This document shows, piece after piece, positions 256 to 64,000 of a stretch of DNA of 64,000 nt; position 1 is the stretch's first letter; the number at the start of each line of letters is the position of its first letter. The translations under genes and the position numbers were made by a program. The notes under the pieces were generated by a model. It was not told the origin of the DNA and did no database searches. It saw nothing but the letters and a program-made list of their open reading frames with translations. The stretch comes from Octopus vulgaris (Eukaryota). The stretch spans positions 18,290,001 through 18,354,000 of the forward strand of contig OX597831.1 in assembly GCA_951406725.2 (NCBI GenBank), in the 5' to 3' direction.

Positions 256-315
256 ATGAATTTCCATCCTGTTTTCTGTCTTGCTCTTGTGGGTGCACTC
301 TTAATGCATGTCTGA
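256..315 (+). CDS. Terminal exon (exon 5) of an upstream 6-Cys GPI-like family member (gene A); the rest lies 5' of the window
   Basis: Acceptor ctctttacag| then MNFHPVFCLALVGALLMHV* (60 nt), stop overlapping AATAAA (TGAATAAA); homologous to exons at 14472, 28391 and 46839. Confidence 0.8.
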   Translation: MNFHPVFCLALVGALLMHV

Positions 316-821: not shown

Positions 822-2275
822 GGTTGGCATCCTTTCTGTTCCCGGCGACAATGGATTTGCGCATAAAGTAGTCTAGTCCGGCTTTTATATTTCATGTGCT
901 GATACATTTCCTGCTGTGGCTGTGTAGTCCTATCCTGGACAAACACTCCCTCTGGCAGGTACCGCAAATGTAGCGAAGACTGTTACTGGCTGGTTGTAAT
1001 GCCATAGTCTCTTGTTTACGTCTCTTCCTTTATTTCCAGTTCTCCTCTCTCTCTCTCTGTCATTCCTTTGTATTCCCTTTTTTACGGTACGTCGCCATTC
1101 TCCACGGTTGCCCGCAACTGCCTCCCAACCGCTAATATTGATGTTGCAGGCCTTCATGTCCCTTTTGCAAACATCCTTGTAACGTAAGATAGGTCTACCC
1201 ACAGACATAGTACCCCTAGCAAGCTCTCCGTAGAGTATGTCCTTGGGGATTCTGCCATCTTTCATACGGCTAACATGCCCAAGCCATCTCATACGTCTTT
1301 GTGTGAGGAGTGCAAACATGCTTGGTATTCCTGCTTGCCTGAGGACATCTTTGTTGGGGATATGATTCTGCCATTTGATGCGGAGGATTTTTCGGAGGCA
1401 GCGCAGGTGAAAGATGTTTAGGCGACGCTCTTGGAGTGTGCATAGCGTCCATATCTCACTTCCATACAGTAGAGTGCTGAGTACACATGCCTGGTAGATC
1501 TTCATTTTCGTGGTCTTGGTAAACTTATTGTTGTCCCAAGCCTGTTTGGAGAGTTGGGCCATCGCAGCAGCTGCCTTGCCAATGCGTATATTGAGCTCAG
1601 CGTCAAGGGATAGGTTTTAGGTGACGGTGGAGCCCAGATAGGTAAACTTCTCCACATCTTGTAATCTGTGGTCTCCAGTATGTATGTTTGGGATGTCCGA
1701 TGTAGCCTGGCCCATGATGTTGGTCTTCTTAAGGCTGATAGCGAAGCCAAAGTCGTTACATGCTTGCTCAAAACAGTTAATGAGCCTTTGGAGGGCTTCT
1801 TCTGTGTGTGTTACCCGAGCGGCATCATCAGCAAATAATATCTCCTTGATCAGGACGTTTCTGATTTTGGTCTTGGCACGCAGGCGCGAGAGATTGAACA
1901 GTTTCCCGTCACTTCTACTGTGCAGAAACACTCCATCATCTGATGTCTGAAAGGCATGTGAAAGTAAGAGCGAGAAGAAGATGCCAAACAATGTAGGAGC
2001 GAGGACACAACCTTGCTTTACCCCGTTTTTTATTTGGAAGGCGGCTGATGTTGAACCGTTGTTCTGTATGGTGCCTTGCATGTCATCATGGAAAGACTTG
2101 ATGATCCTCAGCAGCTTTGGTGGACATCCGATTTTTTGGAGCTGGATGAAGAGGCCTGTTCTGCTTACCGAGTCAAAAGCCTTTGTTAGATCAATGAAGG
2201 CCATATATAATGATATATTCTGCTCTCTGGACTTCTCCTGAAGTTGGCATATGGAGAATATCATATCGATAGTTG
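822..2275 (-). mobile_element. RTE-clade (BovB-like) LINE, 5'-truncated, frameshifted reverse transcriptase
   Basis: ORFs 1617..2264 and 930..1562: FIDLTKAFDSV, GVKQGCVLAPTLF, LFADDAA, FTYLGS, LLYGSEIW, RWLGHVSRMKDGRIPKDILYGEL. Confidence 0.93.
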
Positions 2276-5161: not shown

Positions 5162-5410
5162 ATGAATCTTTCAGTGTTTTCGTTTGTCCTCTTGTTTGGT
5201 AAGTAACAATATCACAGTCATTTCCTTACTAAATTGCAGTGTATTTCGCTGAGCACCAGTCAGTCTTAATACCACGTGTTATTTAGTTTTATATTGTATA
5301 ATTCTATATTTGTTTACCAATTGAACTGTAATGTTTATATCACCGTTCTCTCTCTCTCTCCCCGTCGCTCTTTCTTTCTTTCGTTCTTTCTTTCTTTCTC
5401 TCTCTCTCTC

Positions 5411-5482
<72 letters not shown>

Positions 5483-6262
5483 TCTGTGAGTATGTGTCTG
5501 TCTATTTATATAGCAATTAAAAATCGAAAAGGTAAGATACATAAATGTGAAAAATAAGCACTTGCAATTGCTAGAAATGAGATCGAAAATAATATAACTC
5601 GAACATCCACACAAAATCCCCAACCTCATGGATTGGAGGCTGTAAGTCACGTCAACCAGCGGGATGAAACTCAGAGAATGGGGTAGCTTGATAAAACCTA
5701 TCACGTGATTTTGAAATTTAACCGATATGTTTCCGTTTCTCTTCAGGGGTTTCCCCAATTTGCTCTCGGTTAAAGAGGTAGCTAGTTTCTTATTTGCTCA
5801 CGATAGTAAAAAGCCGTTGAACATCGAGCGTTAAAATTTAAAACGGTTCAAGTGTACATGAATATACAATTAGATATTATGCTGAGACTCCAGTGTTTGA
5901 CTCGGGGGGCGGGGAAAGGGACTCGGAACATTCACATCGGGAACATTCACATCGGGAATGTTACGAGTCCTCTCACCACTTGCCCGTTTGTCGGCGATGT
6001 TTTTCCTTCATATTCGTTTACTACATGTTTTTCTATATCTATTGCAGTATTTTCTTTTTTTGATTATGCTCGGGCCAAACACGGACACACACATATATAT
6101 ATATATAGATATATACGACGGGCTTCTTTCAGTTTCCGTCTACCAAATCCACTCACAAGGTTTGGGTCAGGCTGAGGCTATAGTAGAAGACACTTGCCCA
6201 AGATGCCACGCAGTGGGACTGAACCCGGAACAATGCGGGAACCACACAACCACTCCTGCGCC

Positions 6263-6359: not shown

Positions 6360-9300
6360 GTGTCTATATATATAATATATATATACTTTATTTAAAAGCA
6401 CCAGGAATATAACAACAGCCGTTACTCAGTTCCACGTCCCGTTCGTCGGAGTTTTTTTAACAAAAACAACTTATATTTGCAAATTTATTTTCGAAAAGAA
6501 TCTAGTTCGTATCTTTGTGGAATTGAGTTTCTATAAAATACTTTACACGTTTTACTCCATAATGTGATACGCGTTTCTCTTTTTATACATCCAAATTTCA
6601 GGGGCTGCTTTTTCAGGAAGTTGTCCTGAGATCTCACTAATTAAATGCAAGAACGAATTTAAAGTTTATCTAAGATCGGATCCCAGATGCGTGTATGTAT
6701 TATTGGGCCACTACTTTTTTTTTATTTATATGGAAATTATAAATATATTAAATATAATAGTTTTAGTATCAAATACAAAATATGTAAATGTTATTTTAAT
6801 TGTTTCAGTCATGTGATTGTGGCCATGCTAGAGCACTGCTCTTAGTCAAGCAAATCGACCTCAGTACTTATTCTATCGGTCTCTTTTGCCGAACCGCTAA
6901 GTTACGGGGACGTAAAAACACCAGCATCGGTTGTCAAGCGATGTTGGGGGCAAAAACACAGACACACAAACATATACACACACATAATACATACATATAT
7001 ATACACATATATGATGGGCTTCCTTCAGTGTCCGTCTACCAAATCCACTCACAAGGCTTTGGTCTGCCCGAAGCTATAGAAGAAGACACTTGCCCAAGGT
7101 GGCATGCAGCTGGACTGAATCCGGAACCATGTGGTTCGTAAGCAAGCTACTTAATATATAGCCACTCCAACGCCAATATTTTTACATGCAAAACGAGTGA
7201 TAGCAAAGGAGTTGGGTTTTCAGATGATGAGGTTTCAAGTATAATTGTATAGGTATTTAAATTAACAGAGTATAAGCAAGCGGGGAATTAAAATGCCTGA
7301 AGAAAGGTGTCCAACGGTAGTTTGTGTGGGCTCGGGGATCTATGATAATGTTGGTAGAGGTTGATGTTCATTACGGCCACAATATGTGACCGTAATCAAC
7401 ATTGGATTAGACGAGCATCCTTCATCAGGGTGGAGAGGATCTTACATTTTAGATCTTTATGTAGAATAGAGGGAGAGTTATTTTCCAAGCCCACATCATC
7501 CCACATTTACTTCCGTTGCCAATCCGATCACCCACACCATACAATTCGGTCAAATCCGAAAACCCAATGTTTGTGGATAAAACTGATTTACACGGACATC
7601 GGTGGAAACAAGCAAATGCCTTTGTGTACCATCATGGCAAACGCAGTTACAGTGTAACACGAAGGTGAAACATGCAGACTTTTCTACTTGGGGTACGCAA
7701 AAAGAGATTTCTATTTGGGGTACGAAACTCAACTTGGTTTATTTTGGTTGTACAAAAGAACATTTAAACAAAAGATTTCATGTGTACAGCTATGAAGTCA
7801 GGCACAATAAATGTAGTTCCCCAAAACTTGCCAAATATTTTGCTTCAAACAGGTGCAATTGTGAACAATACTTGAACGCGCATATTCTTAGAAAATATTC
7901 TGAATCCGCTTCACAGTCAATACTCAAAATGTAAGAGGACAAATATGTTTGCGGGTTATTAACATCATGCATTGTAGAATGAATAAAATGATAGGAGAAT
8001 ATTATGAAATTTTCACAAAACTGTTTTATTAAACATTCTTCTTTTTCCCTATTTATGCTTTCCTTATTTTTCTCTCCCTTTTCTCTGTGTTTTTGTTTCA
8101 GCCAGTTATCAGACTGAAACTGAAAGACTGATGATGTCCCTCCCTTAACGAGTGGACGCCGGTTGTTCTCGCTCATACTTTAGATTTGTAGTTCTAAAAT
8201 TTAGAATTCTTATCATATTTGTGTTTATTTTGAATTCGATAAAAACAAGCTTGTTGTCGACAAATAATTAAAGCAATAGAATATCTATTGCACTCGCGTC
8301 ACAGTTTTCGTCTTGCCTGTTTAACTCTGTGAACAGTCAAGTGACTCCTTTTAAAATAATAATAAGAAGAAATAAAAGAGGAGGAGGAGGAGGGGAACAA
8401 CAACAACAAATTTACGAGATTCTGACAAAAATGTCTATAGTAATAAAAAGAGTAAACCAACTAATACTATATGCTATACTGCCCCATTTTCATATTGAAT
8501 TACTTCTAATAACCCTCGTAAATTTTTTACATCACTCATCAGGTATTTCCCACCTTTAAGCAAATATGGGAATTTGTTTAATAGAGATAATGTTAAGTTT
8601 ACGTACTAAATCACAAGAAATTTAGCTGAGATTATTGCAGCACAATAGAAACAGAGAATTAGAGAATATCGAAAATTTAAATCGATAAATAATTTTAGAA
8701 CTGATAATATGTCTAGGGAAATGAGTGCTGTTTGTGATGTAGAGAGTTGTTGTCACTGATGACAAAGCACGAACACTTTCTTTTCCAATGAACACTAAAT
8801 TACATTCCTACCAGGAGTTCGAATCAGATATTTCATTTCTTAAATGCTTTCCTTTGAGACAATACTTCAGTCGTAATTAAGACGTAAAACACTTTAACAT
8901 ATAGTCACATGTGAGGCACAATTTACATATGTAATAACCACTAGAATTTGATAATGTAGATTTGTTCAAAGTTGATTTGATTACATATAAATGTAAAGGT
9001 TTATCGAAATTCAGCATTTAATGTTATGTAAAATTCCAAAATTGATTTCTTTCAGGGCATACAAATTATTTTTGAAATGCTTGGAGAGAAATTCCCCAAT
9101 GTGTCATTCTAATTTTAAGCAACACCTCGTGTGCTGGGTAATATTTTTTTCCATATTATTAATAGTACCTATTTAAATCAAGTGAACTGATAATTAAAGA
9201 TATTTAGTTGAGAAATTCATGCGAATTTATATATAACGGATATTGGCTTTGTTCAAAATCTAAGACTGATTCTGGTTATGAAAGCTTTATTATTATTTCT

Positions 9301-10156
9301 ACAATTAGCGAAAACTCTACAATTTAATGTGGAAATATTTTGTTGAATTGCATCTGATACATTAAATATGATTTTGCGAATTGACTTTTATATTAACATC
9401 AGCATTGCTGAAAGGTTGAGATTGTATATCGGAAATCACAAGCTCGTGTTTTTGCACCGCGTGTTTCAGCTGGTTAGACAAGGTTGTGAATATGTATCAG
9501 TTGATACACTGTCATAACAGTGACACCTGCTACCAATTTTATAAAAAGATAACTGAAGCAAAAAAATGTAAATTTGAATTACAGATATTATGGCATATAT
9601 CCGAAAAGTGATCAATGGAAAAAGACATTGAACAACTAATTTTTATTGAAAATCCCAGATTTATTTTTCAGGCTACTAGAAGATACGTTATTATTATACA
9701 AATCTGTTGAATAGATTTTTGTATCATATGATTTAAATAATACCACAATGAGCGTAAATAATGGATAAAATTTGTTAGATTATCCAAAATTGATATCGCA
9801 TTGGATGAGAAAAAATAGAATGAAATGTATTGGATTCCGGAAACAGTTATTTTAAACGCCCCGCAAGTGGCGGATGAAATGCCTTTTTTATAATTGACAT
9901 TTTATTACGAGAAACGTATCTCAATAGGTAATTCTATGAAATTGCCTTCAATGTAGATATTCCAAAACTAGTTTTCTCACCGGCATTAATTTCAATATAT
10001 TTAAAATATTTACATTATTTACATTGGACGGATATGTGTCCTCATCTTCTATATAATTACTACAACATTTCGGCTGATATACTCTCAAGCCTTCATCAGG
10101 TGTCCTGGTGGAATTTTGAAACCAAACGTGGGTTTTCATTCTTGAGGTACTTTTGA

Positions 10157-10223
<67 letters not shown>

Positions 10224-10391
10224 TATTCAAAGCAATACCTGGAATTGAACTTGAAAAATTGGAGTTAGTAGCCCGCGCTCTTAACCAGTACGCTATGACC
10301 ACGGGCATATAGCATAGTAGTTAAGAGCACGAGCTACTAACGCCAAGATTCTGAGTTCAATTACAGCCAGAGCTTTGAATAAATAATAATG

Positions 10392-10467
<76 letters not shown>

Positions 10468-11199
10468 TAATAACAATAACAACAACAACATAAAAATACT
10501 TTAGGAATGAGAACACAGGGTTGGGTTCAAACATCAACCAGGACACCTGATAAAGGCTGGGGAGTAAATCAGCCGAAAAGTTGTGGTGACAACAAAGAAG
10601 ATGAGGACACAATCTAGACAATCTAAATAACGTACATAATTTGTCATCCTTAGAATTAAGAACATTCAATACAATTATATTACATGAACGGAATATTACA
10701 ATCTATATTTCTTATCATTTTCGTCAATGTTCGTCTCGAAATTGATTTAAAAACAAGGTTATTTAACATTTTAATTCATTTGTATTCATAGTTTTGCTAC
10801 ACAATAATCAATTAATTATACAATATAGAAAACGTTTAGGGAGAGGAAAATTATGTCTTGCTAAGTAGGAACGTTGTTATGAATTTAGATTCAATCCAGC
10901 TTCACTGCGTCGATTTATTTTCACATTTTCTTTGCATTGAACTTTCAGCCCTCAAGAAGAGGCTCCAGTAACCGAGAGAAGGTATATGATTTCGTTGCAA
11001 CACTTCCCAAAAACATTTTCACTAAATTATACAAATTCCTTTTAACGTTACACATAATAGTGCATAGTTATTATAGCCATACACAGAATATCATGGTAAC
11101 GTTGATATGTCAGAAAATTTCATATTTCTAAATAAATTCTTAATAACATTTGCATTGTGTAGACTAATACATTACACAATGTAACGATGCAATAGATCA

Positions 11200-12820: not shown

Positions 12821-14531
12821 TTTATTTTTTTAAATGTTATCTAGTTTCAGCTCAAGAGCTGTGGCCATGCTGGGGCAACGCCCTTTGGTTTTGCTACATG
12901 ATTTTACTTCACGAATGCATTTTAGCAATTGCCATTTGGTGCATGAGAGAGTTCGATGCAGCTGCACTCATCTTCACCTCCTGACGTGCAGTTGGTTCAT
13001 CTGGGACACCTGACAGGAAAAGATCCAGTTTTATTTTAAAGACATCTGCATCCACCCCCATGCAGGTCTCTCAGGTTCTTCGGGAGGATATTGAAGAGCT
13101 GTGAGCCTCGGAAGCCCATGCTATCACAGTATCTTGTCCTACATCTTGATGGCAAATTTGGAGTCCTTAGCACCATGCAGTGGCGCCCAGTTCTAGCATT
13201 TGTGTAACTCTCGATGCCAAAATTTGGGACAAGTCCTTCTATGATCTTCCAGATATATATTATGGCATATCTGTCTCGCCTACGCTCTAAGGAATAGAGT
13301 CTAAATCTCTTGAGTCTTTTCCAGTAGCTTATATGCTGCACAGATGCTATCGTTTTCGTGTAACTTCATTGGATCGCCTCAAGTTCTGTGATTAACTTGA
13401 CACTGGATGGTGACCATAGCTGAGAGCAATAGTGAAAGTGGCTTAGGACAAGTGTCCTCCAGAGGACGATCATGGTTTCCTGGTCTCTTGTTCTAAAGGT
13501 TCTTAGAATCCATCCGGTCAGCCGCCTACATTTCATTGCCAATTTAGCAACATGCACATGAAAGGTTGCATCATCACTCCTGTACATACCTAGGTCTCGC
13601 ACTGATTGTGCCTCTGGGATTGCAATCCCGCCAGGCCCAGTGTATGTTTTGGGTATTGTACTTAGTTTTGCATGCTAATAGCATAAAGCTTGAAACTTTT
13701 CAGCATTGAACTGCATGCTATTCTTTTCAGCCCACTTGTATATTTTGTCCAGCTCACATTACAGGTGCTTAGTGTCTTCAGGGTTCTGTATACATACATA
13801 CATACATACATACATACATACATACATACATACATACATACATACATACATACATACATAATGTGCCTGCGTGTTTTGTTTGACTATATATGTAGACCAT
13901 GATTTCTGTAAGAAATTTCATATTACTGTGTTAACTTTGTTAATTAGTTTGTTAATATACCATCGGGCTGAATCAGAATATCGGACATTTATTGTCTTGG
14001 AAAGTAAGATCAAGCTCTATGGAAGCCGAGTTGAAGGTTTTTCCCTTAAAGTTGACAAATGACTTCAAAGGTTATTTCAAAGCAAATGGTTTTACGTTAT
14101 ATGGTTTACTTTTGCTTTCACCTACACGGAAGCCCACCTGTCGTATCTTGTTTAGTTGACAACAACAACATATCCATTCTGGACACCCTCTGTTTTTTTC
14201 GGTTCTTAGGAAATACAGTACTTTTGACAACAAACGATTCCTATTTCTAATTTATGTCTGTGAAAAACAACGAACGTGAATAGTTGAAAAGATCGATATT
14301 TCCCCAGTCTTATTGTGTTCTCTTCAGGTATTCTCCTAGAAATACCGCGCTCATCAATGTGCGAAACATTGACATCAGGACTGGGTGAAATATTGATCGT
14401 TTCAGTTCGAGTATGTATCTCGTCAATATACGTTCACTATATATGAATAATTTTTTGTTTTCTCTTTACAGATGAAATTTCGCCCAGTTTTCTTCGTTGC
14501 CATTGGAGTTACATTAATAATATTTTATTAA
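5162..14531 (+). CDS. Gene B: complete 5-exon gene for a 100 aa secreted, probably GPI-anchored 6-Cys protein
   Basis: Exons 5162-5198, 6602-6692, 9056-9137, 10949-10981, 14472-14531; all introns GT..AG, phases 1,2,0,0. Translation [100 protein letters not shown]; TAAATAAA at the stop. Confidence 0.88.
6075..6262 (-). mobile_element. tRNA-derived SINE fragment (further copies 6790-7170 and 60810-61210)
   Basis: Shared text cagtttccgtctaccaaatccactcacaagg...gaagacacttgcccaag..gccacgcagtgggactgaacc; the reverse complement contains a B-box-like ggttcagtccc. Confidence 0.7.
7460..7680 (+). mobile_element. Penelope-like element reverse transcriptase (thumb) fragment
   Basis: [41 protein letters not shown] fits the PLE motif KPT..xY...S.HP.H...SIP..Q..R...IC. 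Confidence 0.6.
10010..10635. repeat. Palindromic element: two head-to-head SINE-like copies (tRNA-like head, (AAT)n, hammerhead-like tail)
   Basis: 10010-10300 is an imperfect reverse complement of 10303-10635; A/B-box-like tagcatagtagttaagagc and gagttcaatt; ctgat(g/a)aaggctg...cagccgaaa in both arms. Confidence 0.75.
11229..12700 (-). mobile_element. Degenerate Helitron with a Rep-helicase N-terminal fragment, in intron 4 of gene B
   Basis: ORFs 11640..12191 and 11449..11643: [35 protein letters not shown], then MTPFGA...[14 protein letters not shown]; terminal hairpin tacccggcattgctcgggt at ~11241. Confidence 0.75.
12838..13788 (-). mobile_element. CR1/L2-like LINE 3' fragment (RT C-terminus)
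   Basis: RDLG..., [44 protein letters not shown]; its N-terminal end continues the RT at the end of the window (KWAEKN). Confidence 0.85.
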
Positions 14532-14968: not shown

Positions 14969-15217
14969 AATTGTATGTACACACTTACGTGTTTATGTTT
15001 GTATCTATGTATATACTGGGTGAGTAAAAAGTAGCGCCCCGTTTCTGGCAAAGTCATGACGTAATTCTATTGCCGGTTATTTTTGACACTTTTGAAATTT
15101 AGTTAATCTGGATTGTATATTAGAAATATAGAACAAAAATTAGGCGTCAATTATCTCCGAATTTGGAAGTCTTACATGTAAAAACTAACAATGTATATAT
15201 TTTTTTTTATGTATTTA

Positions 15218-15708
15218 CCTAGTTTCAGCTCACGAGATGTGGTCATGCTGGGGCAACGCCCTTTAGTTTTGCTACATGATTTTACTTCACGAATGCATTT
15301 TAGCAACTGCCATTTGGTGCATGAGAGAGTTCGATGCAGCTGCCCTCATCTGCACCTCTTGCCGTGAAGTTGGTTCATCTGGGACACCTGACAAGAAGAG
15401 ATCCAGTTTCATTTTAAAGACATCTGCATCCACCCCCATGCAGGTCTCTCAGGTTCTTCGGGAGGATATTGAAGAGCTGTGGGCCTCGGAAGCCCAGGCT
15501 ATCACAGTATCTTGTCCTACATCTTGATGGCAAATTTGGAGTCCTTGGCACTATGCAGTGGAGCTTAGTTCTAGCATTTGTGTAACTCTCGATGCCAAAG
15601 TTTGGGACAATTCCTTCTAAGATCTTCCAGATGTATATTATGGCATATCTTTCTCCCCTACGCTCTAATGAATAGAGTCTCAATCTCTTGAGTCTTTCCC
15701 AATAGTTT
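15218..15708 (-). mobile_element. Second, shorter copy of the same CR1-like LINE 3' end
   Basis: Highly similar to 12838-13330; ORF 15414..15728. Confidence 0.85.
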
Positions 15709-15726
15709 ATATATATATATATATAC

Positions 15727-18576: not shown

Positions 18577-19579
18577 ATATAAATTAAGCAATGTAGGCAT
18601 AGATATATTTCTGTATCACCCTTTTATCTTTGTTTCAGTGTGTTTGTGTGTATTGTTAAGGACACGTTTTGTACTCAGTTATAACAATTATCAAGTTGTA
18701 ACTGTTTTACATAATGGATCTAACGATGCGGGTTACGCATAGACTATATAATTCAAGAAAGAATGATTTCAATTGTAAATACTAAGCGTAAGTATTTCTA
18801 ATTGTTTGGGTTCTCTGTCGTTTGATGCTTTTTTCTAGGATATTGCGTCGTCATCTAGTTCAAGGTCCACATCAGTAAGTGGAATTAGATTTCACATTTT
18901 ACCATGTTTCAGCGCAACTACTTAACATATGATACACTATACAGCTAGCTTTGTTACTGTTTTGTCTATTAACTGGGATGCTTCAATGAAGCGAATTATT
19001 CAACTATATCGTTGTGCAAGAAACTGATAATCTTACTTGTAAAGTTATTTAAAAGTACTTCGACGATACAATCCTTCCTGCGATTCCAGACGAACTAACC
19101 TCACAACAAGAGACTCAATCACGGAGTATAATAATGATGTACTAATTAGCAAGAAGAGTGCAATCATACTTCTTCCAGCACCAAAAATAATCTGGAATAA
19201 GTATCAGTTGCGTAATCGTCATAAGAACATAAATCTGAGATGGAAATTTTAAAAGAATTGATGGATGAATGATTATATATCCAAGTGAAGGAGCATATAT
19301 CTGTGTAAGTTTACGAGTGGCATCTCACTGAAACTGGTGCATACGGAGGTATTAACGTTTCTTAACTGTAGCATATCGGTCGAGTTACATACACCGATAA
19401 ACAAACACTTACTTTCTAGAAACGTGTCTTCCATTCTTCTGTATTGCAAGCAAATTATGTGAAGTCTCATAGATCAGCATTTACTGGATTAGCGTGTAGG
19501 AAATGCAATGACAAATGTCATTATCTAAAAAGTTGATGCAGCATATGTTACATAAGACTCAATGTTTCAAATAAGACAT

Positions 19580-19664
19580 ATGGCGGTCGGTTGGATGATA
19601 AAGCACAGAATTCAAAGACACAAAATCATATATCTTTCAGTGTTAACTCTTCTTCTCTCATTTG
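19580..19664 (+). pseudogene. Orphan first exon of the 6-Cys family (gene C): homologous start is ATA, with in-frame ATGs upstream
   Basis: 19628-19664 ATA TAT CTT TCA GTG TTA ACT CTT CTT CTC TCA TTT G|gtaagt (IYLSVLTLLLSFG), 37 nt like the other first exons; in-frame ATGs at 19580 and 19595; no exon 2 found before gene D. Confidence 0.7.
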
Positions 19665-21974
19665 GTAAGTATTTATACAAGGTTATTCTTTCCTTACTAA
19701 TTGAAACTTCAATATCTTTCAGTATATTTCTATGAAAATCACTATATCGGAATTATAATATATCTGTACATAACTTTATTAATTTCCTTTCCTTTCTTTT
19801 CTTTGTCAACCGATCGATTTACATTTCCAAGTATATATTAGGACTTGTACAATATAAGCCGCCATGGCTGTGTAGTTAGGAAGTTCGCGTGTTTTTTTGT
19901 CTGGATCCACTGCGTGGCATCTAGAGTCAATGTTTAATGCCGCACTCTGTTCATATGTCTCGACATCACCACAAATTCACAATCGGTATTGGTCTATCTA
20001 AGTCCTCATCACTTGGGCGTAACGAAAAAGGTGACCGAGAGAAAATGGAAAATAACTGACAAAAATGCGTTTTGTTGTGGATTGGTTCGACATTTCAGGG
20101 CTGTGGGCCATCAATGCCACACTGTAACCTATAAAACAAGTTAAAGTTAAAAGATATATGCATATCTTTATCTCTTATTCAATACAAGACAATTTATTCA
20201 ATTGTCGATAAACATGCACGTCTGTGAATGTTTATCTGTGTATAGAGTAATATGCTTTATTTAAAAGCAGCAGAAATTTAACAAATTGTTACTCAGAGTT
20301 TCACCTTCCCGTTTGTCGAACAGTTTTGTTAAAATGGAACCGAGATGACACTTCGATCAAGACTAGCATAAACGATACACCTTTTGTTTTATTGGTCCTT
20401 TCAAATAACGGTCATATGCGAGCGATAAACAAAATAAACAAAACAAAATAAAGAAGTTCAATAAAAAAATTATAAAAAACGAGGAAAAACCTTAAATCGA
20501 AGAGTTGATTCAAATACATATTGTCATTAATAATGTAGAAAATATAATTCGAATAATACAATTAATACAAAAATTGAAATTTAATATTAAAATATATTAA
20601 AATATCTCACAACAGTATATACTCATACTAAACCATCAATATACATGTATTCATCAAAATACACAGAGAGATGTGCACAGACCACATATATATATATACA
20701 GACATATAAATGCAAAACGAAAATATACACACAAATACATGTACACATATGTATACGAAATCTTGCTCGCATGCAAAAATCACTTGGTGTATACATATAG
20801 ACTAGAAGTGAAACCCAGAGAGGGGGAAGAAAAGAAAATCTAACGATCTTATAAGCAACAGAAAGTTCTAATTCTTATAGTTCTTAAATCTGACAGGAAT
20901 GTGTCAGTGTAACGATTGTTAAACTGATTTGTCTAAATTGTTTGTATTTCCTGTCCTAAGAATTGCTTATCTGAACGATGAACCGAAAAGCTATAACAAC
21001 ATAAAAATCAAATTAAAATTCAATTATCTTCCTTGGCAGAAAGGACAATACTTTCAAGAATTCACGTTGTATGTGTCTAAGAAATATGATTTGGTAATGT
21101 TATATATAATCAGGATTGTCCTGATCCAAAAACGTCTTCGTAGAGTTTTTTGAAATATTAAAAAGAGTGACATATATCTCTCATGTGAAAAGATTGCGTT
21201 GAGGCTATTATATTATGGACTTTTCTTTCTCAGGTTTAGAAAACGGAACGTAAAAGTTCATCTGCAAAAGTAGCTCGATGTCTGTTTCTCCTGAAACAAC
21301 AAGCAACATAAATTTTAAAACAGGAAAACAGCAAGGCTGTGTTTCTAAGAAGAAATTGAACCTATGTTTGAACCCACTAATAAAATTTTGTTCCTAAGCG
21401 CGTGCGTCCAGAATGTAAGAATTGCAGATATTTAAATGAATATAAGAGAACTGGAAAACGAACGTATGAAAATAATGAAAAACAGAACTAAAATTGGAGA
21501 TTAAGAACACTCGGTGATATAAAGTAAGTAATGAAAGAGGCCAAATATAGAAAGAAATATCTGAGAATAATGAGAGAGAGAGTTAGTTAAAAATACCAAC
21601 TAGAGAGAGAAAGCGGAGGAGGAGATGAAGAAAGAAACATAGAAAAACAGAAAAGGGTAGACAAACAAATACAGGTATGTTAGGAGGACGAGATATGAAA
21701 TATAAAACAGACTGTGGTGGGGGAAAAAGGATATAGAGGCCATAGGAGAATAAATTACAAACACACAGAGTAAAATGTGTAAGCAAAATTCAAAATAATT
21801 AGACGCAATTTATATACACACACACGCACACACAGACATCTATCTATATATATATAACTTAGAATAACTTAGAAAGGTTTTTGGCCAGTATTGGCCCAGG
21901 CCATGTCTAACTTAATAGCACCACCTGGCGAAGTCTTTCAGTTCAGGATTTGGGCACCAAGGCCCATTCGAGCA

Positions 21975-22929: not shown

Positions 22930-23297
22930 TTATAGCTTATCAACATTAACCAAAAGTAAAAAGAGAAAAAGACAGTCTGAACGCAATCTTTTCACATGAG
23001 AGATATATGTCACTCTTTTCAATATTTCAAAAAACTCTACGAAGACGTTTTTGGATCAGGACAATCCTGATTATATATAACATTACCAAATCATATTTCT
23101 TAGACACATACAACGTGAATTGTTCAAAGTATTGTCACTTCTGCTAAGGAAGATAATTGAATTTTAATTTGATTTTTATGTTATAGCTTTTCGGTTCATC
23201 GTTCAGATAAGCAATTCTTAGGACAGGAAATACAAACAATTTAGACAAATCAGTTTAACAATTGTTACGCTGACACATTCCTGTCAGATTTAAGAAC

Positions 23298-23685
23298 TAC
23301 TAGCAGTATCGCCCGGCGTTGCTCAGGTTTGAAAGGGAAATAACTATAAAGCATTTTTAGAGAGTTATAGCCAAAAAATAGCAAAAAAATGGGGAAAAAA
23401 TAATGGCAAATTTTTTTTTGAGAGTTAAAAAAGGTGGAGTTGCGTCCCCTAGACAGTCTGTGGTTTGTGTTTCTGATTCTCGACCCCATGTCGAATTTAT
23501 CGATTTTTTTCAGAACTGGGGGAACTTTTCAAAATTTTCGCTGCGTTAGTTTTGAATTATGACATTGGGCTATGTGTGTGTCAAGTTTCATCAGAATCGG
23601 TTGAAAGCCGTGGTCAGGGTGAGGGTACAAGCAAACAGACACACAGAAACACGCACAGACAAACTGCCGTTTATATATAGAGAGA
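23298..23685. mobile_element. Non-autonomous Helitron/Helentron-like element
   Basis: Begins actagcagtatcgcccggcgttgctc (hairpin like 11241) and ends acagacaaactgccgtttatatatagagagat; similar architecture at 33961-34438. Confidence 0.55.
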
Positions 23686-24416: not shown

Positions 24417-25614
24417 ATGAATACTTCTGCGTTTATTTTAATTCTCTTATTTGGTAAGTTGCTAAGCATTGATATTTTCTTTACGTATTCACTTGTCAAT
24501 AACTTTCGGTATATTTCTCTTAACAAATATGTGTATATGTACTTACATATTTGTCTGCACTTGAAGAATTGCCAAGTAAATGTGATATTATAGTCGTAAT
24601 TATATATGTAGCTAGTTCTATGTCTGTGTGCGCTCGCGTATGTTATGTGCATGTGTACATAGACCTATATATATATATTTATGTATGTAGATTTATTGGA
24701 TGAATATGTATTTGTGTGTGTGTGTGTGTGAGTGTGTGTGCATGTACCTATATGTGGAATACGTCCTGTAAATGTGGCTCTACCATAGGAATTCCAGAAT
24801 CTAAGGAGTGGGAAACTTTCTCTTAACAACATGTGTAGCGACGTCTGCTCAGCCTTGAATTTTCATACCAAGATTCCTCTAATTAGCATATGGACCACCT
24901 CTAATTCTCTTTAGACATTTCTCAGGAGATGGTATGCAAGAAATCTAAATTAAAATTCAACTTTGGTTGCTTCCACCTCCTTTGTGTCACTGGTTTATAA
25001 TTGAATGCGCTTTCAGAGGAAGCCACGGTAGGCATAATCTGACGAGGGACTTAATTTCTATAAAATGTTTTAGAAATTCTCTTCGTAATACTATTTGCAT
25101 AATGAGTTTTGATAATCTAAAATCTACACTAGGAAATATGAAAGACCTAATGTATTCGTTTTCTAGGTTCCGTTCTCTCAGATACGTGCATGGAACTCGC
25201 ACTTTGTGTGTGTAAAGAGGATTACATTGCATATTTGAAGAATAGTTTCCACTGCAAGTATGTATTATTAGGTTACTATAAGTCACATTCATATATAGCT
25301 TTCACACACATTTTTCTATATGTATGTATGTTTGTGCACACACACACTCATTCACATATATATGCAAGACACTTTATTTCACATTGCCCCAGTTCACTCA
25401 ACCGTAGAAATGTGTTGTGACACCACAGGTGCTAAAATGTATCGGCCTTTGCCTTTTCCTTGGATAACATCGTTGGTGTCGAGAGGGGAGGCTGATATGC
25501 ATGGGCGACTGCTGGTCTTCCATAATACAAACTTACCCAGACTTGTACCGCGGAGGTTAACTCTCTAGTTACAATCTCATCGTCATTCATGCCCAGAGGG
25601 GATCACACTTCACC

Positions 25615-25654
<40 letters not shown>

Positions 25655-28450
25655 AAGAGTAAGAGGTTACACAGGATTGAATCTAGATACTGTAAAATAA
25701 ATAAATTTGATCAGTTACATGAACCAAATTGTGTTCATAAATCACATGTAAAGACTGGGAGAAATGTTGAATGTATCGAGTACAACAATTTATTTCATCG
25801 GAGCCCGCATGCTCACAGAGCAGTGATTCTTACCGATAGGTAGAAATTCATTTGCTCAGGGACTTGATATGATATATTAATTAAAATTATATCTTTGTAC
25901 TCAAATTAGCACTGAAAACCAATGCAACGGATTCTTCAAACAGCGTTACATAGATATTTCATTCCTAATACTTGTACACAATTATTGAAATCCAGCGACG
26001 TGGTTATGAATTGAACTTCCTTACCATAGAGCCATATCAGGGAATAAATTTGTATTTTTTAAGAAACACTCGAAAGAGAAAAGATAAATTTAAAGACGAT
26101 GGTTTGATGGCAAATTATTATGATGAAAGAGATTTGAAAATTAACGTTTTAACTTCTGATTTCAAATTTGTATTCCAGGACACGCAGACAGTTTCTGAAC
26201 TGCTTTACAGGAGAGGATGATTACTGTTACACTCAATTTCACAACAAACTTTATTGCAAGGTACGATGTTTGTTATCCTCATAATTCTGTGGAAGACAAT
26301 TGTAGCAAATAATTAAAGTAACAAGCAATAATCCTTACCGTAAATTATTCTATTGAAATTTCATACAAAACAGATTATATAACGCTGTGATTTATTTTGT
26401 CAATGGGAACTTTTAATGGTATTCGAGAAAATGGAAATCGCTGGACGCGAATGGAATGGCTATGCTGTTTATTTCCGTCGTATACAGCTCGGGAACATTA
26501 AACATTACAAATACGGCATCGATATCCAGTCCAAGAATTTCACAGTCGGTGTGACGATATAGCAAAGACCACAGGTGCAATCTTTCGCAGTTTAGGTTTC
26601 TGCAGAAAATGCAGCGTTTATAAAATTAACATTTGAAATTACCAGTTAGTAAACCTGACGCACACTCTATATTTCAATCAACATGGGAATAAAAAATGCT
26701 CATTACCAAGAGGTATTAAGGTGCAGAACTCAAAACTTACTCAACATAGGAAACGTACAGCTGAAATCTATTTTTAATAAAATTCACAGATGTGATTAAT
26801 GTTGCAAATGGTACAAAAAGTGTCCCTGATTATTCTGATGATGTTCTGAAAATCCTTGTGTGGGTTATAATTTAAATACAACAACAGTGCGAGAAACATT
26901 CTCATAAGATTCGTAAGTTTCAAGATCAAAATATATTTGGGGTTGAAAATTTTCACCTAAAAGTATAGGCATTCAAACCTTATTTCAGAATGCTTTCACA
27001 ACTTTCAAAATGGTCGTAACTTTCCGAAAAGTCATTTTCCTATTTTACAAAATTATATTAGGACATACGTGATTCAAGTATTTCATTTACATTATAGAAA
27101 GCATATCTTGCCGGTTTTGTATTCAACAGTAAAGGCATACGATATCCAATAAACATATTTGGTAGTAAAACTCTTTGTATTCCTTAATTTTTTCTAGAAC
27201 TGTTCGTTAAGAAATCGATGAAAATACTAGAAATATACTCCATCAGGTCGTTATGAATGTTAATCGTATAAACTATAAAATTAATTCTTTCCACAAAAGG
27301 CACAGCGAACAAAATTTGGGGGCGGGTGATGATCGATTACGATGACACCGATACTCAACTAGGACTTATTTTATTGGCACTGAAAGGAATTTGAATTTAT
27401 CTACTAAGCATTATGCCCGACGCATTATCAATTCTGCCAAATGCAAGTAGTTTGACTTCTACGCTCAGCCAAGGCAAGCATACTGCCTTCTTTCTTTTCA
27501 CACCGATTGCATTATATACTGGGTGTTGATCGAAGAAGGTTGTACACAGATCAGTAGAATATATTTATAAAGTAACATTAAATACAACTATGTTTTGTTC
27601 TTTCATTATTCAGTATACTTTGGCACTTTACTTTCAGATGCGCAACTCTAGCAACCGACGGGAGGTACGTTGATTTCATCGTTACTGAACTCTTGATGAA
27701 CTGTTTTTAATTAATTATGTTTCATATAAATTTCGTTTCTTGACAGCATCAATTTTCAAGTTTTTCATATTTGTCGTGAACTTGTTCACAGCGACATTTT
27801 GAATTATACACAGAATATCATTACAATTCTAATATTTTCCATGTTTAAATATATATTTTAATATATTACTTAATAGTATTTACAATATGTTGAATATTAC
27901 TTGAATATAATTGCAATATATGGAATAGAAATTGCGCCTTATAACAATTTCGGAAATCTTTCGCATAACAATTCTTACATAAGTTGTTTATTATTTCTAA
28001 TACCTTGAATAACACATCATACAGTTGAAGTAAACATCGGAGATATATTCAGGGGACTGAAGATTTAAGACCAAGAACATCTATATGGAAGATTCTCTAT
28101 TCAATGCGGAGGTAGGGCCGAATGAAGCATCGTTGATAAAAACATTTTTTCAACTGTGTCGTTATCAAACTCAACAAATATAAACTGCTCTTGAAATCGA
28201 TATATCTCGAGCATTTTTCCGTTCTTTTAAGGTTCCTTACCAATTTTCACCAAGACTCACTTAACTAAACTTGGTACGAAATAACATGCAATAATTCATT
28301 GAAAACTATTACACAGAACATTTTTATATACGTCATATCGCACCATTTTCAATATGCCTGAATAAAGTTAGTTTTCATTTCTCTTTACAGATAAAACGAC
28401 AGCCACTGTTCCTTCCAGCTATTGTGTTCACATCGCTCATGCATGACTAA
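24417..28450 (+). CDS. Gene D: complete 5-exon gene for a 98 aa secreted, probably GPI-anchored 6(+1)-Cys protein
   Basis: Exons 24417-24453, 25167-25257, 26179-26260, 27638-27664, 28391-28450; GT..AG, phases 1,2,0,0. MNTSAFILILLFGSVLSDTCMELALCVCKEDYIAYLKNSFHCKTRRQFLNCFTGEDDYCYTQFHNKLYCKMRNSSNRREIKRQPLFLPAIVFTSLMHD*; TAAATAAA. Confidence 0.88.
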
Positions 28451-29598: not shown

Positions 29599-29659
29599 CT
29601 GAATTTTAAAGTCTGATTTCTTTGCTGCATGTGATGTTTTATAACTAATGGAAAATTAA
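29599..29659 (+). pseudogene. Degenerate orphan terminal exon of the 6-Cys family
   Basis: Same ctctttacag acceptor and TAAATAAA end; 61 nt with a +1 frameshift and an internal stop (LNFKSDFFAACDVL*LMEN* after removing one A). Confidence 0.7.
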
Positions 29660-30087: not shown

Positions 30088-31110
30088 TCATTGTTCGACC
30101 GTAGTCGAGACAATGGAATTTACCATGCTACGCCGGACTTCACGGTCCATCATGGCATTACGGAGGTCCTGTTGCTGGATGCCTGTATCCCTGGCGATTA
30201 CATCAGGGTAGGAGAGTGTGCGCCCACTGGTATTGCAAGTAGATGGCTTCCAGAGGAGAAGAGTAGAAATTACTTCTTTTTCAGCTCTACAACAATGTCC
30301 AGCAAACTGGACTCTCCTACCTTTCACAAGACATGACACAGGTAGTAGTTTCCCATATATTTGCATGTTGGTTGGATGGCACTTCCACGAGAGATTTTGA
30401 GCTCTCATAAGGAGGCGAGTGTAGGTTCCATCCAACCGCCTCTCAAGCTTCTTTGATAACGTCTAGGTTTCTGAGGCATATAGTAGAATTGGTTCGACTA
30501 TGGCTTTGAAGATTTCAAGTTTGAAGTCTCTACTTAGATTTGATGACCAGATCTTATGAATGTCATTACAGGCTGACCAGGCCATACCCTTTCTAGTTAG
30601 AAAGTTTTTTCCAGATGATGATATGTATGACCCAAGATATTTATAATCAGAAACCATATTTAAGGGCGCATTGTTGAGAGTATGGATGATGCAAGAGTAT
30701 GGATGATCACTGTTGGACAGGCACTTGTTTATGTATTCAGTTTTGGCCTCATTGAGGTAAAGACCTACACAATTTGAGGCTTGTTCAAGAGATTGTAAAA
30801 TAGACTGGGCATTGGAGAGAGAATCACTGATAAGAGTGATGTTGTCAGCAAAGTCAGTGTCTGTCAAGCATTCAGCTGGGTGTCTGGAACTTCTTCTTTG
30901 TTTTATTTCAAAGCTCGTGCCAGAGATGGTATCAACTGACATACGTAGCACATAATCAACAACAATGATGAAAAGAAATGGGGCGAGTGTGTCTCCCTGC
31001 AGTATTCCGGCTTTGATTGAGAAAGATGATGTTTCTCCGTGAGGGGTTAAGATGGTTGAACACGTATCTTTGTAGAGGACCTTGATGGCAGAAATGATTT
31101 TGTCTGGTCT
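30088..31110 (-). mobile_element. RTE-like LINE, 5'-truncated RT
   Basis: AGILQGDTLAPFLFIIVVDYVLR, DTDFADNITL, DYKYLGSYI, EPILLYASET, RVQFAGHCCR. Confidence 0.9.
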
Positions 31111-31273
31111 CACATAGAGATTAAGGATTTCAAACATATATATATATATATATTCATGTTTGCATGTATGTGTGTATGTATATATGTATGTATGTACAGT
31201 GTGAGTCAAACCTGCCTGCCAGATTATAATTATTATGGTTATTATTATCATTATTATCATTATTATTATCATT

Positions 31274-31308
<35 letters not shown>

Positions 31309-31529
31309 AGAGAAATGATATCGTTGGTGATACAACATTCTAATGTAGCTACATGCCATTAATTTGCGACTAAATGACATGTGATGCAGATTCACTCTCG
31401 AACGGAATTAGCATCCCAGTCTTTGTATCATAAATATTTATAGGGACATCTCCTAACGAAAGCCAGAACTGTGCCTTGTTACTGTGAATGCGAGAACGGA
31501 TCTTTAAGAAGATCCCTCACATATTTTGG

Positions 31530-35345: not shown

Positions 35346-46898
<11,553 letters not shown>

Positions 46899-48982: not shown

Positions 48983-50481
48983 CTCCTGCCTAGTTTGTCT
49001 GACTTCATCCTATTATATCTGTTGTGACTTTATGTATGTCTCCCTTTCCTCAATCATGTACCCCCTACAAACTATAAAATCATATATAAAATAACACATA
49101 TAACATTATAACTCTTCCGTCTGAATATCTTTAACTGCCCTCAATATTACCATAGATATCACCTCCACTTTTTGGGTTACCTTTATCTTTTAGATACCTC
49201 TAATTTTAAACCCCCGTCTCTCTGTATGTAGGTTATATGTATTTCTTATTATTTTCTATCAATTCTTATTATTTCGTTTTTTTTTCTTATTTTCATGTCC
49301 TGTTTTCCTTGTTTTTAAATAGATACTCTTCAGTTACTTTAGTAAACGCATGCTATTTATAATATATCCATACAAACATATTAATATAGCGTGTATATCT
49401 TTCCAGTTATTCCATAAGAAAATGCCTTGAGCCGTTTCCATAGAAACCACATCATAAATACGTAAATACAGAAGTGAATATTAAACTAATTCTATGCAGT
49501 CTTAATTTTTAATGTTTATAAGTGATATATACACACATTCTACCTGTTTTTGGTTATGAAATCATGCTTGAAATTCTTAAATTAATTTTTATACAACATT
49601 GTTTATAAAGAATCCCCCATAATGCCCCTAAATATAATTTCCTCTGTATTAATATCTTAGGTTTATTAGCATCTCGCCCCTTTGACAGGAAACTATCACA
49701 ACGATTTAAAGTGTTCGCCTATCCTGCATCTTTTTATAGACACTTATTTATATCCAACTGACTACTCGTAATGCCTGATTTCCTTCCTGGGGAAAAAGGG
49801 GTACTTATGATAATATATTTATAACTATACCTAGCCAAGAGATGTCAACCCACTCTTGTCCGATATTCAAGATAGACACAGTCTATTATAATCCCTATTA
49901 TCCCACTATGATCCCACTATGGATTATTAGGAGTTGTAATCTACTGTTAATTCTAATAGTGACAACATGAATTCATTCTATCTTTTTCCAGTTAAAATAT
50001 TAGAGAAAATTATATTAATGTTCTACTTGTTAAAATTCCGTTTATTTTTTAATGCACCGTATTGAAATTGATGTAATAAGTGCATTGTTCAATTAAATGG
50101 AGCCGCTTGGAACGGTCGTAGTGCATCACTATGGGATATCCTGTTTCTCATTGTGAATTTTGATTATATATATACATAGCATTAGGAATATGCAACCTTT
50201 GAAACATATGTCGAAAATAAAGGAATATTGTTAATTCGTCGTTCAACTCCATTCTTTCATATATATATATATATTTAAATAGGTGATTGAATTATCCTAT
50301 GTTTATCGTCAGCATGGAAAATTCGTTGAACCGAAACCTGGGTAGCAAATTCACGTCAGAAACACGGTTGAAGCGACCTGTCCAAGGGTAGAAACTCCGG
50401 GTTCATGTGCAGAAATGTGTGTGTTGTATATGAATAACTGAAAGAATGGAGTCGAAAGAAGATGTTAACTGAATTCCTTTA

Positions 50482-50563
50482 CTCTCGACATATGTTTCGA
50501 AGACAACATGTTCTCATTCCAAAGGAATAAAGGGTGCATTATGCAATATTTTCATCAGGAAAG
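50482..50563 (-). ncRNA. Putative type I hammerhead ribozyme (Penelope/retrozyme type), left arm of the palindrome
   Basis: Minus strand: ctttc CTGATGA [long stem II] GAAAC ATAT GTC gagag; stem I ctttc/gagag, short stem III with palindromic ATAT loop, GUC cleavage triplet. Confidence 0.6.
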
Positions 50564-50649
50564 AAAGGGACCCTCTCTCGACAACAAGACAAACAAACAT
50601 TTCGATGACTGTCTACATGGTAAATATGTTGTCGAGAGAGGTTCCCTTT

Positions 50650-50731
50650 CTTTCCTGATGAGAATATTGCATAATGCACCCTTTATTCCTTTGGAATGAA
50701 AACATGTTGTCGTCGAAACCTATGTCGAGAG
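50650..50731 (+). ncRNA. Putative type I hammerhead ribozyme, right arm of the palindrome
   Basis: ctttc CTGATGA gaatattg...gtcgtc GAAAC CTAT GTC gagag. Confidence 0.55.
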
Positions 50732-50793
50732 TAAAGGAATTTATTTAACATCTTCGTTCGACTGCATTCTTTCATTTATTTATATGTATACAT

Positions 50794-50855
<62 letters not shown>

Positions 50856-50873
50856 ATGAGCTTTGGTAAAGTA

Positions 50874-52445
<1,572 letters not shown>

Positions 52446-55251: not shown

Positions 55252-56791
55252 ATAATTATATCTACATTTCTATTATTTAGTGAGTTGTTTACGATTATTT
55301 TCTTATTCTTACTTAACATATCAAAGCATTCAATTAGTTTTGCTGTTTACAAATACATCGAAATACAATTCTAGCTTTATAATATTTTATTATTTATTTT
55401 CAAGTCGACATTTCTCCCTTACTATTTCTTCTCGTATGACTTAAATTAATTTTTCCTTGAAATGCTTGCTGGAAATGTGAAGTTTGGTTGCGTATTACTT
55501 GCATATCTCTGTATATGTTCACTCAAATGAATTTGTCTGTATTGTAGTAAACGGTTCCATTCCTTATGTAGTGTGGTTTGCCGACTAAGTGCCAGTACAT
55601 AAGCAATTATTTGAGTGAACGCATGGAGAGGTCTCCAGGTAAAATCCAACTAAACTTCACAATTTTCCTCATGTATAAGTGCAAAGAAGCATTTTCTATA
55701 CAAGAATGTTTAAATAATATATAATAAAATATATATTTTCATGGAAAAAGTAAAAAATAAAAACATATTTATGGAAAAATACAGAAAAATATGAACGCAT
55801 AAACAACTTTGGTCTCAGAAGATATTTTAATTCATGTTTACATGCACGTCTCTGTAAATATTTCATCTCACTAATTTATCTTTTGAGATTTTGTATACTT
55901 GTTTACCCACGCCCCCCAAAATAAGCAGTTACCTACCCTGTCCCGAATGATAATGTTCACCAATGACTATCCCTTACAGTTTTCAACTTCTTGATTCATT
56001 TCATTCACAAACTTCCATACACAACGTGAACGAAAATCTACTTAAGAAAATACGAAATTACAACAATTTCAATGTCATTATTAGCGAAAGCGAAACCGGT
56101 TCAAACACACAATAATATTTTGCTTATAAAATGTATTAAAATACATATTAACACTATGTAAACTGTGTGTGCATTTTCCTTCTTTTATTTTGTTTATGTG
56201 TATATACGTATATATATAAATATATATATATGAATATATATATATACATGCATATATACACATATACACATATACATATGTATATACGTACATATGCTTA
56301 TCTATTTCTCTACATATATATATATATATATGTGTGTGTGAGTGTGTATTCGAGTATTTTATGTTCATTTGCCGAAATATTTAGGACACCTGTGTAAGTT
56401 GAAATATAGTTATTTGCAGGCCAGCCTAAGCAAGATCTTATTAAGTAATAATGAAACTTGAGACCTATTTTCGACGTTCCAAAACACTTTAGCTTCCCAT
56501 TCAATTTAGGATTTAATGCAGTGGAAAATGTCACACGTTTAAGCTGAGCCAAAATTTAAGACCCAAGCTCGGGGTAGACATCATTTACAGGCAAATGTAA
56601 TTTTCTATGATATTCAATGTTAAAGAAAATATTATATTCCATGATCCCGTTCGCAAAGGAAATTGAATAAATTCTGTGATATCAGGAATCTTGTAAGCAG
56701 GGATGGCCCTCTCAAATAGGCGGGAACTACTGTCAAACCGATTTTGTCCATCGGATTATGAACATTATCAGGGGCCTGACTCTCATTGCCA
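55252..56791 (+). pseudogene. Gene F: truncated pseudogene of the 6-Cys family (exons 1 and 2 only)
   Basis: Exon 1 55252-55279 (ATG>ATA, 9 nt shorter, gtgagt donor); exon 2 56701-56791 (x)MALSNRRELLSNRFCPSDYEHYQGPDSHC with first Cys lost, donor GT>CT and acceptor pyrimidine tract deleted relative to gene G. Confidence 0.8.
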
Positions 56792-57515: not shown

Positions 57516-62583
<5,068 letters not shown>

Positions 62584-62729: not shown

Positions 62730-64000
62730 CATATGCTACAAATGTGTCCCAGAGAGAAAGGCCACTGTACACAAGAACAAAATCCCCAGAGAGAGGAAGA
62801 TTTTAATGAGACGACGTACAAAAATTTCAAATCGCCTAAACAAACAAATTAAAAGCAGTGAAAAGTCCCGCCTGAAAATAAAACTGTTGGAAATTGAAAA
62901 ATATCTGCAACTCTCCCATGAAAAGGAAAGAGCAGACAAAGAAGCCTGGGCTATAGACAACATAAAAACTAACCCCAGAGTTTTCTACAGGTATGCCAAA
63001 GAAACAGCTACGGTGCACTGTAGGATAGGGCCACTCCTTGAAAAGGATGGCACACTCACAGGAAAACCAATGAGGGTAAGTGAAATACTGAATGAGCAAT
63101 TCAAGAGTGTTTTCACTCCACCCCTTCGGCATTTCCAAATCACCAATCCAACTGACTTCTTTACCACTGCAGATATAAAATCAGAGGCGGCGACGATAAA
63201 TTACATCGATATAAAGGAAGACGATGTAATAAAGGCTATAGATGAAATGAAAACAGACTCAGCTACTGGCCCCGATGGATTCTCGGCAATCCTCCTAAAA
63301 GTATGTAAGAGAGTCCTAGCAAGACCACTGCAGTTCCTCTTTCAGAACTTCCTTGCAGCTGGCAAACTTCCAAGAAACCTGAAGGAAAGTAAAAGATGCC
63401 CTATTCATATAGGAGGTAGCAGAGCGGAGGCCAAGAACTACAGACCTATCTCTCCGACCTCACACATCAGCAAGGTCATGGAACGAATAGTCAGAAGGAA
63501 ACTGATCACCTTCCTTGAAGAAAATGACTTGCTGCCTGACACCCAACATGGTTTCCGACCAGGAAGAAGCTGCTTAACTCAGCTCCTACAACACTATGGC
63601 TGGGTGCTGAAACGACTGCTCAACCACTCAAATGTGGAAGTGATATATCTCGACTTTGCAAAGGCCTTTGATAAAGTCGATCATGGAATGATATGTCACA
63701 AACTGCGTGATCTCAGCATAGTTGGAAAACTGGGAGAATGGCTTCATGACTTTGTGAAAGATAGAAGTCGGGTGGTAGTAGCCATTAATACGCAAATAGT
63801 GAGCGGTGTTTCGCAGGGCACTGTTTTGGGACCACTAATGTTCATAATGGCCCTCTCAGACATGCCCTCAGCCACGCAGAGAGCCACGATTACAAGTTAT
63901 GCAGATGATACAAAAGTTTCACAGGCAATACAGAACCCCGAAAACACTAAATGCCTGCAATGTGAGCTAGACAAAATATACAAGTGGGCTGAAAAGAATA
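62730..64000 (+). mobile_element. CR1-like LINE ORF2 (RT), frame apparently open to the window end, in intron 2 of gene G
   Basis: GPDGFSAILLK, NYRPISPTSHISKVMERIV, QHGFRPGRSCLTQLL, IYLDFAKAFDKVDH, SGVSQGTVLGPL, YADDTK. Confidence 0.93.

Follow-up and report, generated by a model that had tools for sequence, protein, structure and literature searches.

A tandem array of small six-cysteine genes with predicted GPI anchoring in a 64-kb region of the Octopus vulgaris genome

Neuritin carries six cysteines with spacings of eight and seven residues in the middle, and a comparable pattern, C-x8-C-x7-C, was read by an initial annotation in a segment of octopus DNA (6602-9137) that holds no long open reading frame. 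It was proposed that this segment encodes minimal surface proteins related to neuritin and to the N-terminal domain of the repulsive guidance molecules (RGM-N), expanded in this lineage. The question is what this locus encodes, and whether its cysteine pattern denotes kinship with these families. The whole stretch of DNA analysed, referred to as the window, spans 64 kb. From its sequence, the locus is part of a tandem array of poorly annotated octopus genes that encode tiny six-cysteine proteins, for which GPI anchoring is predicted.

Within the window lie three complete genes (A, B and C), a pseudogene (E), two orphan exons, and two further genes (Z and D) truncated by its ends; the array runs head to tail on the forward strand, in the order Z, A, B, C, E, D (Table 1). 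The segment 6602-9137 corresponds to the second exon of gene A, an intron of 2.4 kb and the third exon; its endpoints are the exact exon limits, and exon 2 is bounded by AG and GT. The intron phases (1, 2, 0, 0), the exon lengths and the splice sites recur across genes A to C, and each full model, compared with a profile built from the remaining two, reaches 54-77 bits, where 200 shuffled sequences reach at most 10.6; for these reasons the six-cysteine pattern is not attributable to chance. The hydrophobic last exons of Z, A, B and C have 19 codons each and are directly followed by a stop, and in most genes a poly(A) signal overlaps or adjoins that stop. Profiles built for each exon and run over the window retrieved both orphan exons, which were absent from the training sets, and the first exon of pseudogene E; later exons of E were not found in the window. 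The orphan exon-1 copy near 19600 has lost its in-register ATG and has in-frame ATGs upstream; gene B could use it as an alternative first exon, or it could be a remnant. The approximately 260 nt that precede the first exons of A, B, C, E and D can be aligned between paralogues, show no obvious common TATA box, and are likely a conserved promoter or 5' UTR.

Table 1. Positions of the genes and exon copies of the array within the window
Feature	Position	Strand	Description
Gene Z, last exon	256-315	+	remainder of the gene upstream of the window
Gene A, exon 1	5162-5198	+	start codon and signal-peptide hydrophobic core; donor in phase 1; 37 nt, equal in B and C
Gene A, exon 2	6602-6692	+	91 nt; end of the signal peptide (A-x-S site), Cys1-Cys3
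Gene A, exon 3	9056-9137	+	82 nt; Cys4-Cys6, predicted helix-turn-helix
Gene A, exon 4	10949-10981	+	putative micro-exon, 33 nt, phase 0-0; G-S-S, likely GPI omega site
Gene A, exon 5	14472-14531	+	hydrophobic C-terminal tail (19 codons); the stop overlaps the poly(A) signal
Orphan exon-1-like copy	19595-19664 (noted span 19532-19676)	+	phase-1 donor intact; nhmmer E 2.9e-10, outside the training set
Gene B	24417-28450	+	98 aa; exons 24417-24453, 25167-25257, 26179-26260, 27638-27664 (putative, N-S-S), 28391-28450
Orphan last-exon copy	29599-29658	+	dead, in-frame stops; E 8.8e-10
Gene C	35346-46898	+	100 aa; exons 35346-35382, 43717-43810, 45027-45108, 46392-46421 (putative, D-S-S), 46839-46898
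Pseudogene E	55252-56791	+	exon 1 (55252-55279), ATG changed to ATA; exon 2 (56701-56791), Cys1 absent, donor dead
Gene D	57516-62583	+	exons 1 (57516-57555) and 2 (62493-62583); later exons past the window end

The window is AT-rich (GC 0.26-0.43) and includes many microsatellites and retroelement fragments. Reverse-transcriptase (RVT_1) fragments of LINE-type elements occur at 1617-2264 (-), 30463-31395 (-) and 63471-63706 (+), one of them inside the second intron of gene D. The first intron of the same gene carries two open reading frames of 231 and 136 aa (58512-60132, -), with a weak Pfam match to BIR (E 0.006), and they resemble a decayed DNA-transposon protein. Long inverted or palindromic blocks at 50428-52445, at 10003-10642, and at 20878-21206 with 22974-23299, whose arms are up to 96-100% complementary, are likely foldback or MITE-type elements. 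A repeat found in several introns (6076-6238, 6864-7135, 60902-61173 and others) is SINE-like and presumably resembles a common octopus SINE. In addition, a direct repeat of about 515 nt, 93% identical between its copies (12823-13334 and 15198-15712), lies on either side of the last exon of gene A and may act as a substrate through which exons are lost or duplicated.

When the models are spliced, the C-x8-C-x7-C motif is present in the three complete genes as part of a full cysteine spacing of 7, 13, 8, 7, 9, in which Cys3 and Cys4 are residues 42 and 51. The phenylalanine that had been pointed out three residues before the second cysteine of the motif, which is Cys4, is likewise invariant in these genes, as is a phenylalanine at Cys5+4 (3/3 in both cases), and Cys2+4 is Phe or Tyr in all five exon-2 copies. 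None of the three decapeptides quoted in the initial annotation is encoded in one frame; each spans the phase-2 intron of gene A, B or C, with its first cysteine at the end of exon 2 and the remainder in exon 3 (at 9057, 26180 and 45028), so they had been spliced correctly there. In agreement with the same source, the three-finger motif of Ly6 proteins (CC..D.CN) is absent from the spliced models. The amphipathic helical periodicity also claimed there was borderline for the averaged Cys3-Cys4 segment (maximum between 100 and 110 degrees; p = 0.054 and 0.069 by permutation) and did not appear in three of five segments (p 0.17-0.59). Gene B has a seventh cysteine two residues before Cys2 (exon 25167-25257), which could allow a disulfide-linked dimer.

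The helical fold was checked with AlphaFold, run exon by exon. Exon 3 alone (alignment of three) was modelled as a helix hairpin, with helices at residues 2-12 and 16-29 and a mean pLDDT of 62.5, and exon 2 alone (alignment of five) gave no structure (pLDDT 51.7); at this low confidence the C-terminal half would not be beta-rich. Foldseek/VIA searches with the exon-3 hairpin, a single exon of about 30 residues, returned generic matches, none of them neuritin or RGM. The turn of the model falls between Cys4 and Cys5, and judging from the residue numbers Cys4 would oppose Cys5 and Cys3 would oppose Cys6, which is the nested layout of CHCH proteins; such a turn appears to fit a nested hairpin at least as well as the long second helix of an RGM-like arrangement. 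With exon 2 present, a crossed, RGM-like disulfide layout is possible. In genes C and D a proline directly follows Cys2.

By inspection, the four genes in which these exons are available encode an N-terminal signal peptide, formed by the hydrophobic exon 1 and small residues at -3/-1 (A/V-x-S). The C-terminal end demanded more attention, given that joining exon 3 straight to the tail exon leaves no acceptable GPI omega site. A search of the third introns yielded one micro-exon candidate of 27-33 nt and phase 0-0 per gene; the three candidates encode G-S-S, N-S-S and D-S-S in identical register, and these triplets are likely the GPI attachment site. With them, the precursors of A, B and C would have 100, 98 and 100 aa and the mature domains 56-58 aa, the predicted omega site would lie 4-6 residues past Cys6, and the propeptide would have exactly 25 residues in the three cases. 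A GPI signal is described in PMC3497722 as small residues at omega and omega+2 followed by a hydrophilic and then a hydrophobic stretch, and according to PMC2119539 serine at omega+2 works, less actively than glycine or alanine. Given the putative micro-exon, the three genes conform to this rule: the residues at omega and omega+2 are small, the spacer that follows is polar and basic, and the tail is hydrophobic with no cytosolic domain behind it; tail hydropathy is 2.2-3.0 over 12 residues, and the tail of gene B is weak (1.2 over 15 residues).

Across the two strands of the window there are 91 candidate micro-exons, and 4 of them contain the small-residue triplet; three of these 4 are those of the third introns of A to C, one in each. 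This motif filter was chosen after the candidates had been seen. The best local DNA match between introns covers the micro-exon in four of six directed comparisons with flanks and in three of six without them, and the DNA similarity is modest, since 3-34 of 100 shuffles reach these scores with flanks and 20-71 of 100 without. The micro-exons of B and C do not select each other in this comparison, and in gene C another candidate, at 45720/45729-45758, competes with the chosen one. The remaining AG/GT-bounded, Ser-rich candidate (18839-18874) lies outside the modelled genes, goes undetected by the DNA profile of the micro-exons, and is probably due to chance.

Sequence divergence is distributed unevenly along these proteins. 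Among genes A to C, 8-10 of 16 positions are identical in the signal region and 14-16 of 54 in the mature region, six of them being the cysteines, which corresponds to a paralogue identity of about 28%. Over the whole genes dN (0.63-0.69) is lower than dS (1.2-2.4, near saturation). In exon 2 of C and D, the closest intact pair, pN exceeds pS (0.46 and 0.34), and third positions give 0.70 versus 0.50. For this pair the flanking introns (0.73-0.75) resemble each other more closely than exon 2 does (0.57; uncorrected Fisher p 0.02), a comparison biased by setting ungapped against gapped alignments and with a shuffle baseline of 0.53-0.58. The pair D-E, which includes the pseudogene, also shows pN (0.47) above pS (0.23), and in C-E pN is lower than pS; hence pN exceeds pS in two of ten exon-2 pairs, each of 20-21 codons, and the seven pairs other than these three are saturated. 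These values are a hint of diversifying selection on exon 2. Pseudogene E has decayed at positions that are conserved in A to D.

Two other readings of the array were weighed against GPI-anchored surface proteins. It is unlikely, in our estimation, that the C-terminal segment is something other than a GPI signal, so that the proteins would be tail-anchored by a short membrane helix or would be soluble antimicrobial, pheromone or venom-type peptides cut at basic residues. A conserved signal exon followed by a hypervariable cysteine framework is the layout of defensin- and toxin-type families, the mature form of A is cationic (+5), both A and B carry Arg-Arg in their micro-exons, and the omega site depends on the micro-exon; on the other side, mature B and C are near neutral (0 and +2), the small-residue triplet stands a constant 25 residues from the C-terminus in the three genes, and the hydrophobic tail runs to the C-terminus with no cytosolic anchor and in gene B is too short for a membrane span. 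Far less probable still is that these are remnant exons, dead or non-coding, in which the cysteine pattern is a relic. Such a reading would agree with the incorrect public models, with the pseudogene and orphan exons of the array and with the lack of protein records found for A, B or D, but genes A, B and C, unlike E, retain open frames, splice sites, six cysteines and a stop at the same codon in spite of near-saturated silent sites.

The public record of the family is scarce. Word-based searches and a full HMMER scan of 1.84 billion representatives produced a single true match, the Octopus vulgaris hypothetical protein CAI9735852.1, and no protein record for genes A, B or D; single-exon profiles are blind to relatives below approximately 70-80% identity. 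Four stretches of the window account for CAI9735852.1; three match it at 100%, and the fourth agrees until the splice point, in keeping with a window from O. vulgaris or from a genome indistinguishable from it at these sites. The record takes its second exon from exon 2 of gene C, skips exons 3 and 4 and uses a wrong frame in the last exon, and has the look of a mis-prediction. This model (26431-46957) also joins two unrelated segments (26431-26550 and 36289-36370) to that exon. Searches of Pfam, PDB sequences and the Atlas, each with one exon of about 30 residues, gave no match to neuritin or RGM, and two sets of single-exon queries (7 and 10) retrieved no neuritin family with E <= 10, at a fragment length (about 30 aa) for which the HMMER filters drop weak matches. 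The only hint from Pfam was CHCH (PF06747), with E 0.03-0.05, for gene A alone among the three exon-3 sequences. In the octopus-directed literature covered, no description of this family appeared; the family, of likely GPI-anchored surface proteins, is real and apparently undescribed. From the original proposal there remain small six-cysteine proteins with a signal peptide, a likely GPI anchor, tandem expansion and a predicted helical exon 3; the anticipated profile or structural match to neuritin or RGM-N was not obtained with single exons.

The exon structure, the signal peptide, the six conserved cysteines and the hydrophobic C-terminal 19-mer lacking a cytosolic tail are read directly from the genomic sequence. 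On this basis the reading that we favour, as probable but with some reserve, is that the tandem genes encode a helical mini-domain, likely trimmed at its N- and C-termini to 56-58 residues and likely with three disulfides, which is predicted to be displayed by GPI on the cell surface and likely serves as a partner-binding recognition tag or receptor modulator. The precursor would be imported into the ER and cleaved after residue 17, the micro-exon would be included in the mRNA, three disulfides would form, with Cys3-Cys6 as a helical hairpin, and the GPI would be transferred to the G, N or D of the micro-exon. A recognition role is proposed because the scaffold is conserved and the non-cysteine surface hypervariable, such that each paralogue may bind a different partner, which could be a microbe, a membrane receptor, a gamete or some other cell. 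Shedding would be possible by cleavage of the GPI or, in gene A, at the Arg-Arg directly before omega. Recognition molecules, little known in cephalopods, are expected to combine a conserved GPI scaffold with a surface that changes fast; since the public annotation is wrong for this family, single-cell atlases and proteomics cannot see it. A bolder proposition, which we hold to be doubtful, is that cephalopods turned a stand-alone neuritin/RGM-N-type domain into a Ly6-like, positively selected repertoire of GPI surface tags. If true, neuritin and RGM-N would be joined in one ancient fold family that extends to molluscs, and the repertoire would be a source of candidates for molecules that modulate receptors or confer identity in octopus neurons, skin or suckers; if the neuritin/RGM link held, these would be the smallest known version of the domain and an invertebrate entry to the evolution of neuritin.

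That link in its strict form, true minimal homologues of neuritin or of the three-helix RGM-N domain, with crossed disulfides and acting as neurotrophic ligands or as co-receptors of the TGF-beta/BMP family, seems to us rather improbable. The invariant aromatics at Cys2+4, Cys4-3 and Cys5+4 speak for it, the last of which would equal Leu103 of RGMB if Cys5 is Cys99, and since both Cys1-Cys2 and Cys4-Cys5 are spaced by x7, an antiparallel pairing of C1-C5 and C2-C4 would fit. The octopus phase-2 intron lies in the codon after Cys3, and the second intron of vertebrate neuritin, of phase 2 and just past its third cysteine, may share this position. The x8 spacing equals Cys80-Cys89 of hemojuvelin (PMC6615163), RGM-N consists of three helices and three disulfides (PMC7354924), and neuritin of a signal peptide, a small domain and a GPI anchor (PMC12715718). 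Against it, only two of the five spacings agree, and the C-x8-C-x7-C spacing alone is weak evidence because about 1% of random six-cysteine layouts contain an (8,7) pair (0.23% at that position), which is not rare given the many families with which a pattern can be compared.

Compared with neuritin (CPG15; NRN1 and NRN1L), the octopus proteins share a signal peptide, one small cysteine domain, a C-terminal GPI signal (predicted in octopus) and possible shedding (PMC12715718 and PMC6502786). Neuritin is described as a conserved, GPI-anchored and sheddable protein of 142 aa (PMC12715718, PMC4669798, PMC6502786 and PMC7880330), whereas the octopus precursors have 98-100 aa. The high conservation of neuritin contrasts with the low identity of the tandem paralogues, a divergence unlike that of a conserved signalling ligand, and its other three cysteine spacings differ from those of octopus. 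With RGM-N (RGMA, RGMB and hemojuvelin) the likeness comprises six cysteines, a helical character (predicted in octopus), the x8 spacing, a hydrophobic Cys5+4 and a GPI-anchored host protein. In RGM the RGD/RGN-Leu loop, which joins helices 2 and 3, and the third helix bind GDF5 (PMC7354924), and a vWF-D domain follows the N-terminal domain (PMC8063088). In the three octopus genes Cys4-Cys6 spans 18 residues versus the 30 of Cys89-Cys119, with no room for the long BMP-binding third helix; Cys5+2 is Ser, Thr or Glu instead of the loop glycine, only the hydrophobic +4 (Phe) agreeing; and there is no vWF-D domain, the predicted omega site being 4-6 residues past Cys6. The constant genomic offset in PMC6615163 means that the stretch from Cys80 to Cys119 of hemojuvelin is free of introns, where the octopus domain is interrupted by two. 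Membership in the RGM family thus fails on the tested features, except for the Cys3-x8-Cys4 spacing and the hydrophobic Cys5+4.

CHCH (twin CX9C) proteins are approached by the CX8C-x7-CX9C arrangement and the predicted helix hairpin, but the match to PF06747 misses the gathering cut-off (14.3-14.9 versus 27.2 bits), genes B and C give no match, and CHCH proteins are mitochondrial, with neither an ER signal nor a GPI signal. Ly6/uPAR genes lie in tandem clusters and encode tiny, GPI-anchored disulfide scaffolds whose surfaces vary, an architecture that the octopus array, with its predicted GPI anchors, appears to share; it differs in having six cysteines instead of 8-10, no adjacent CC, no terminal CN, and an exon 3 predicted to be helical and not beta, while the three-finger motif ends in CC-x4-CN. 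By analogy, the octopus proteins appear to resemble neuritin and Ly6 in architecture, with family membership unproven.
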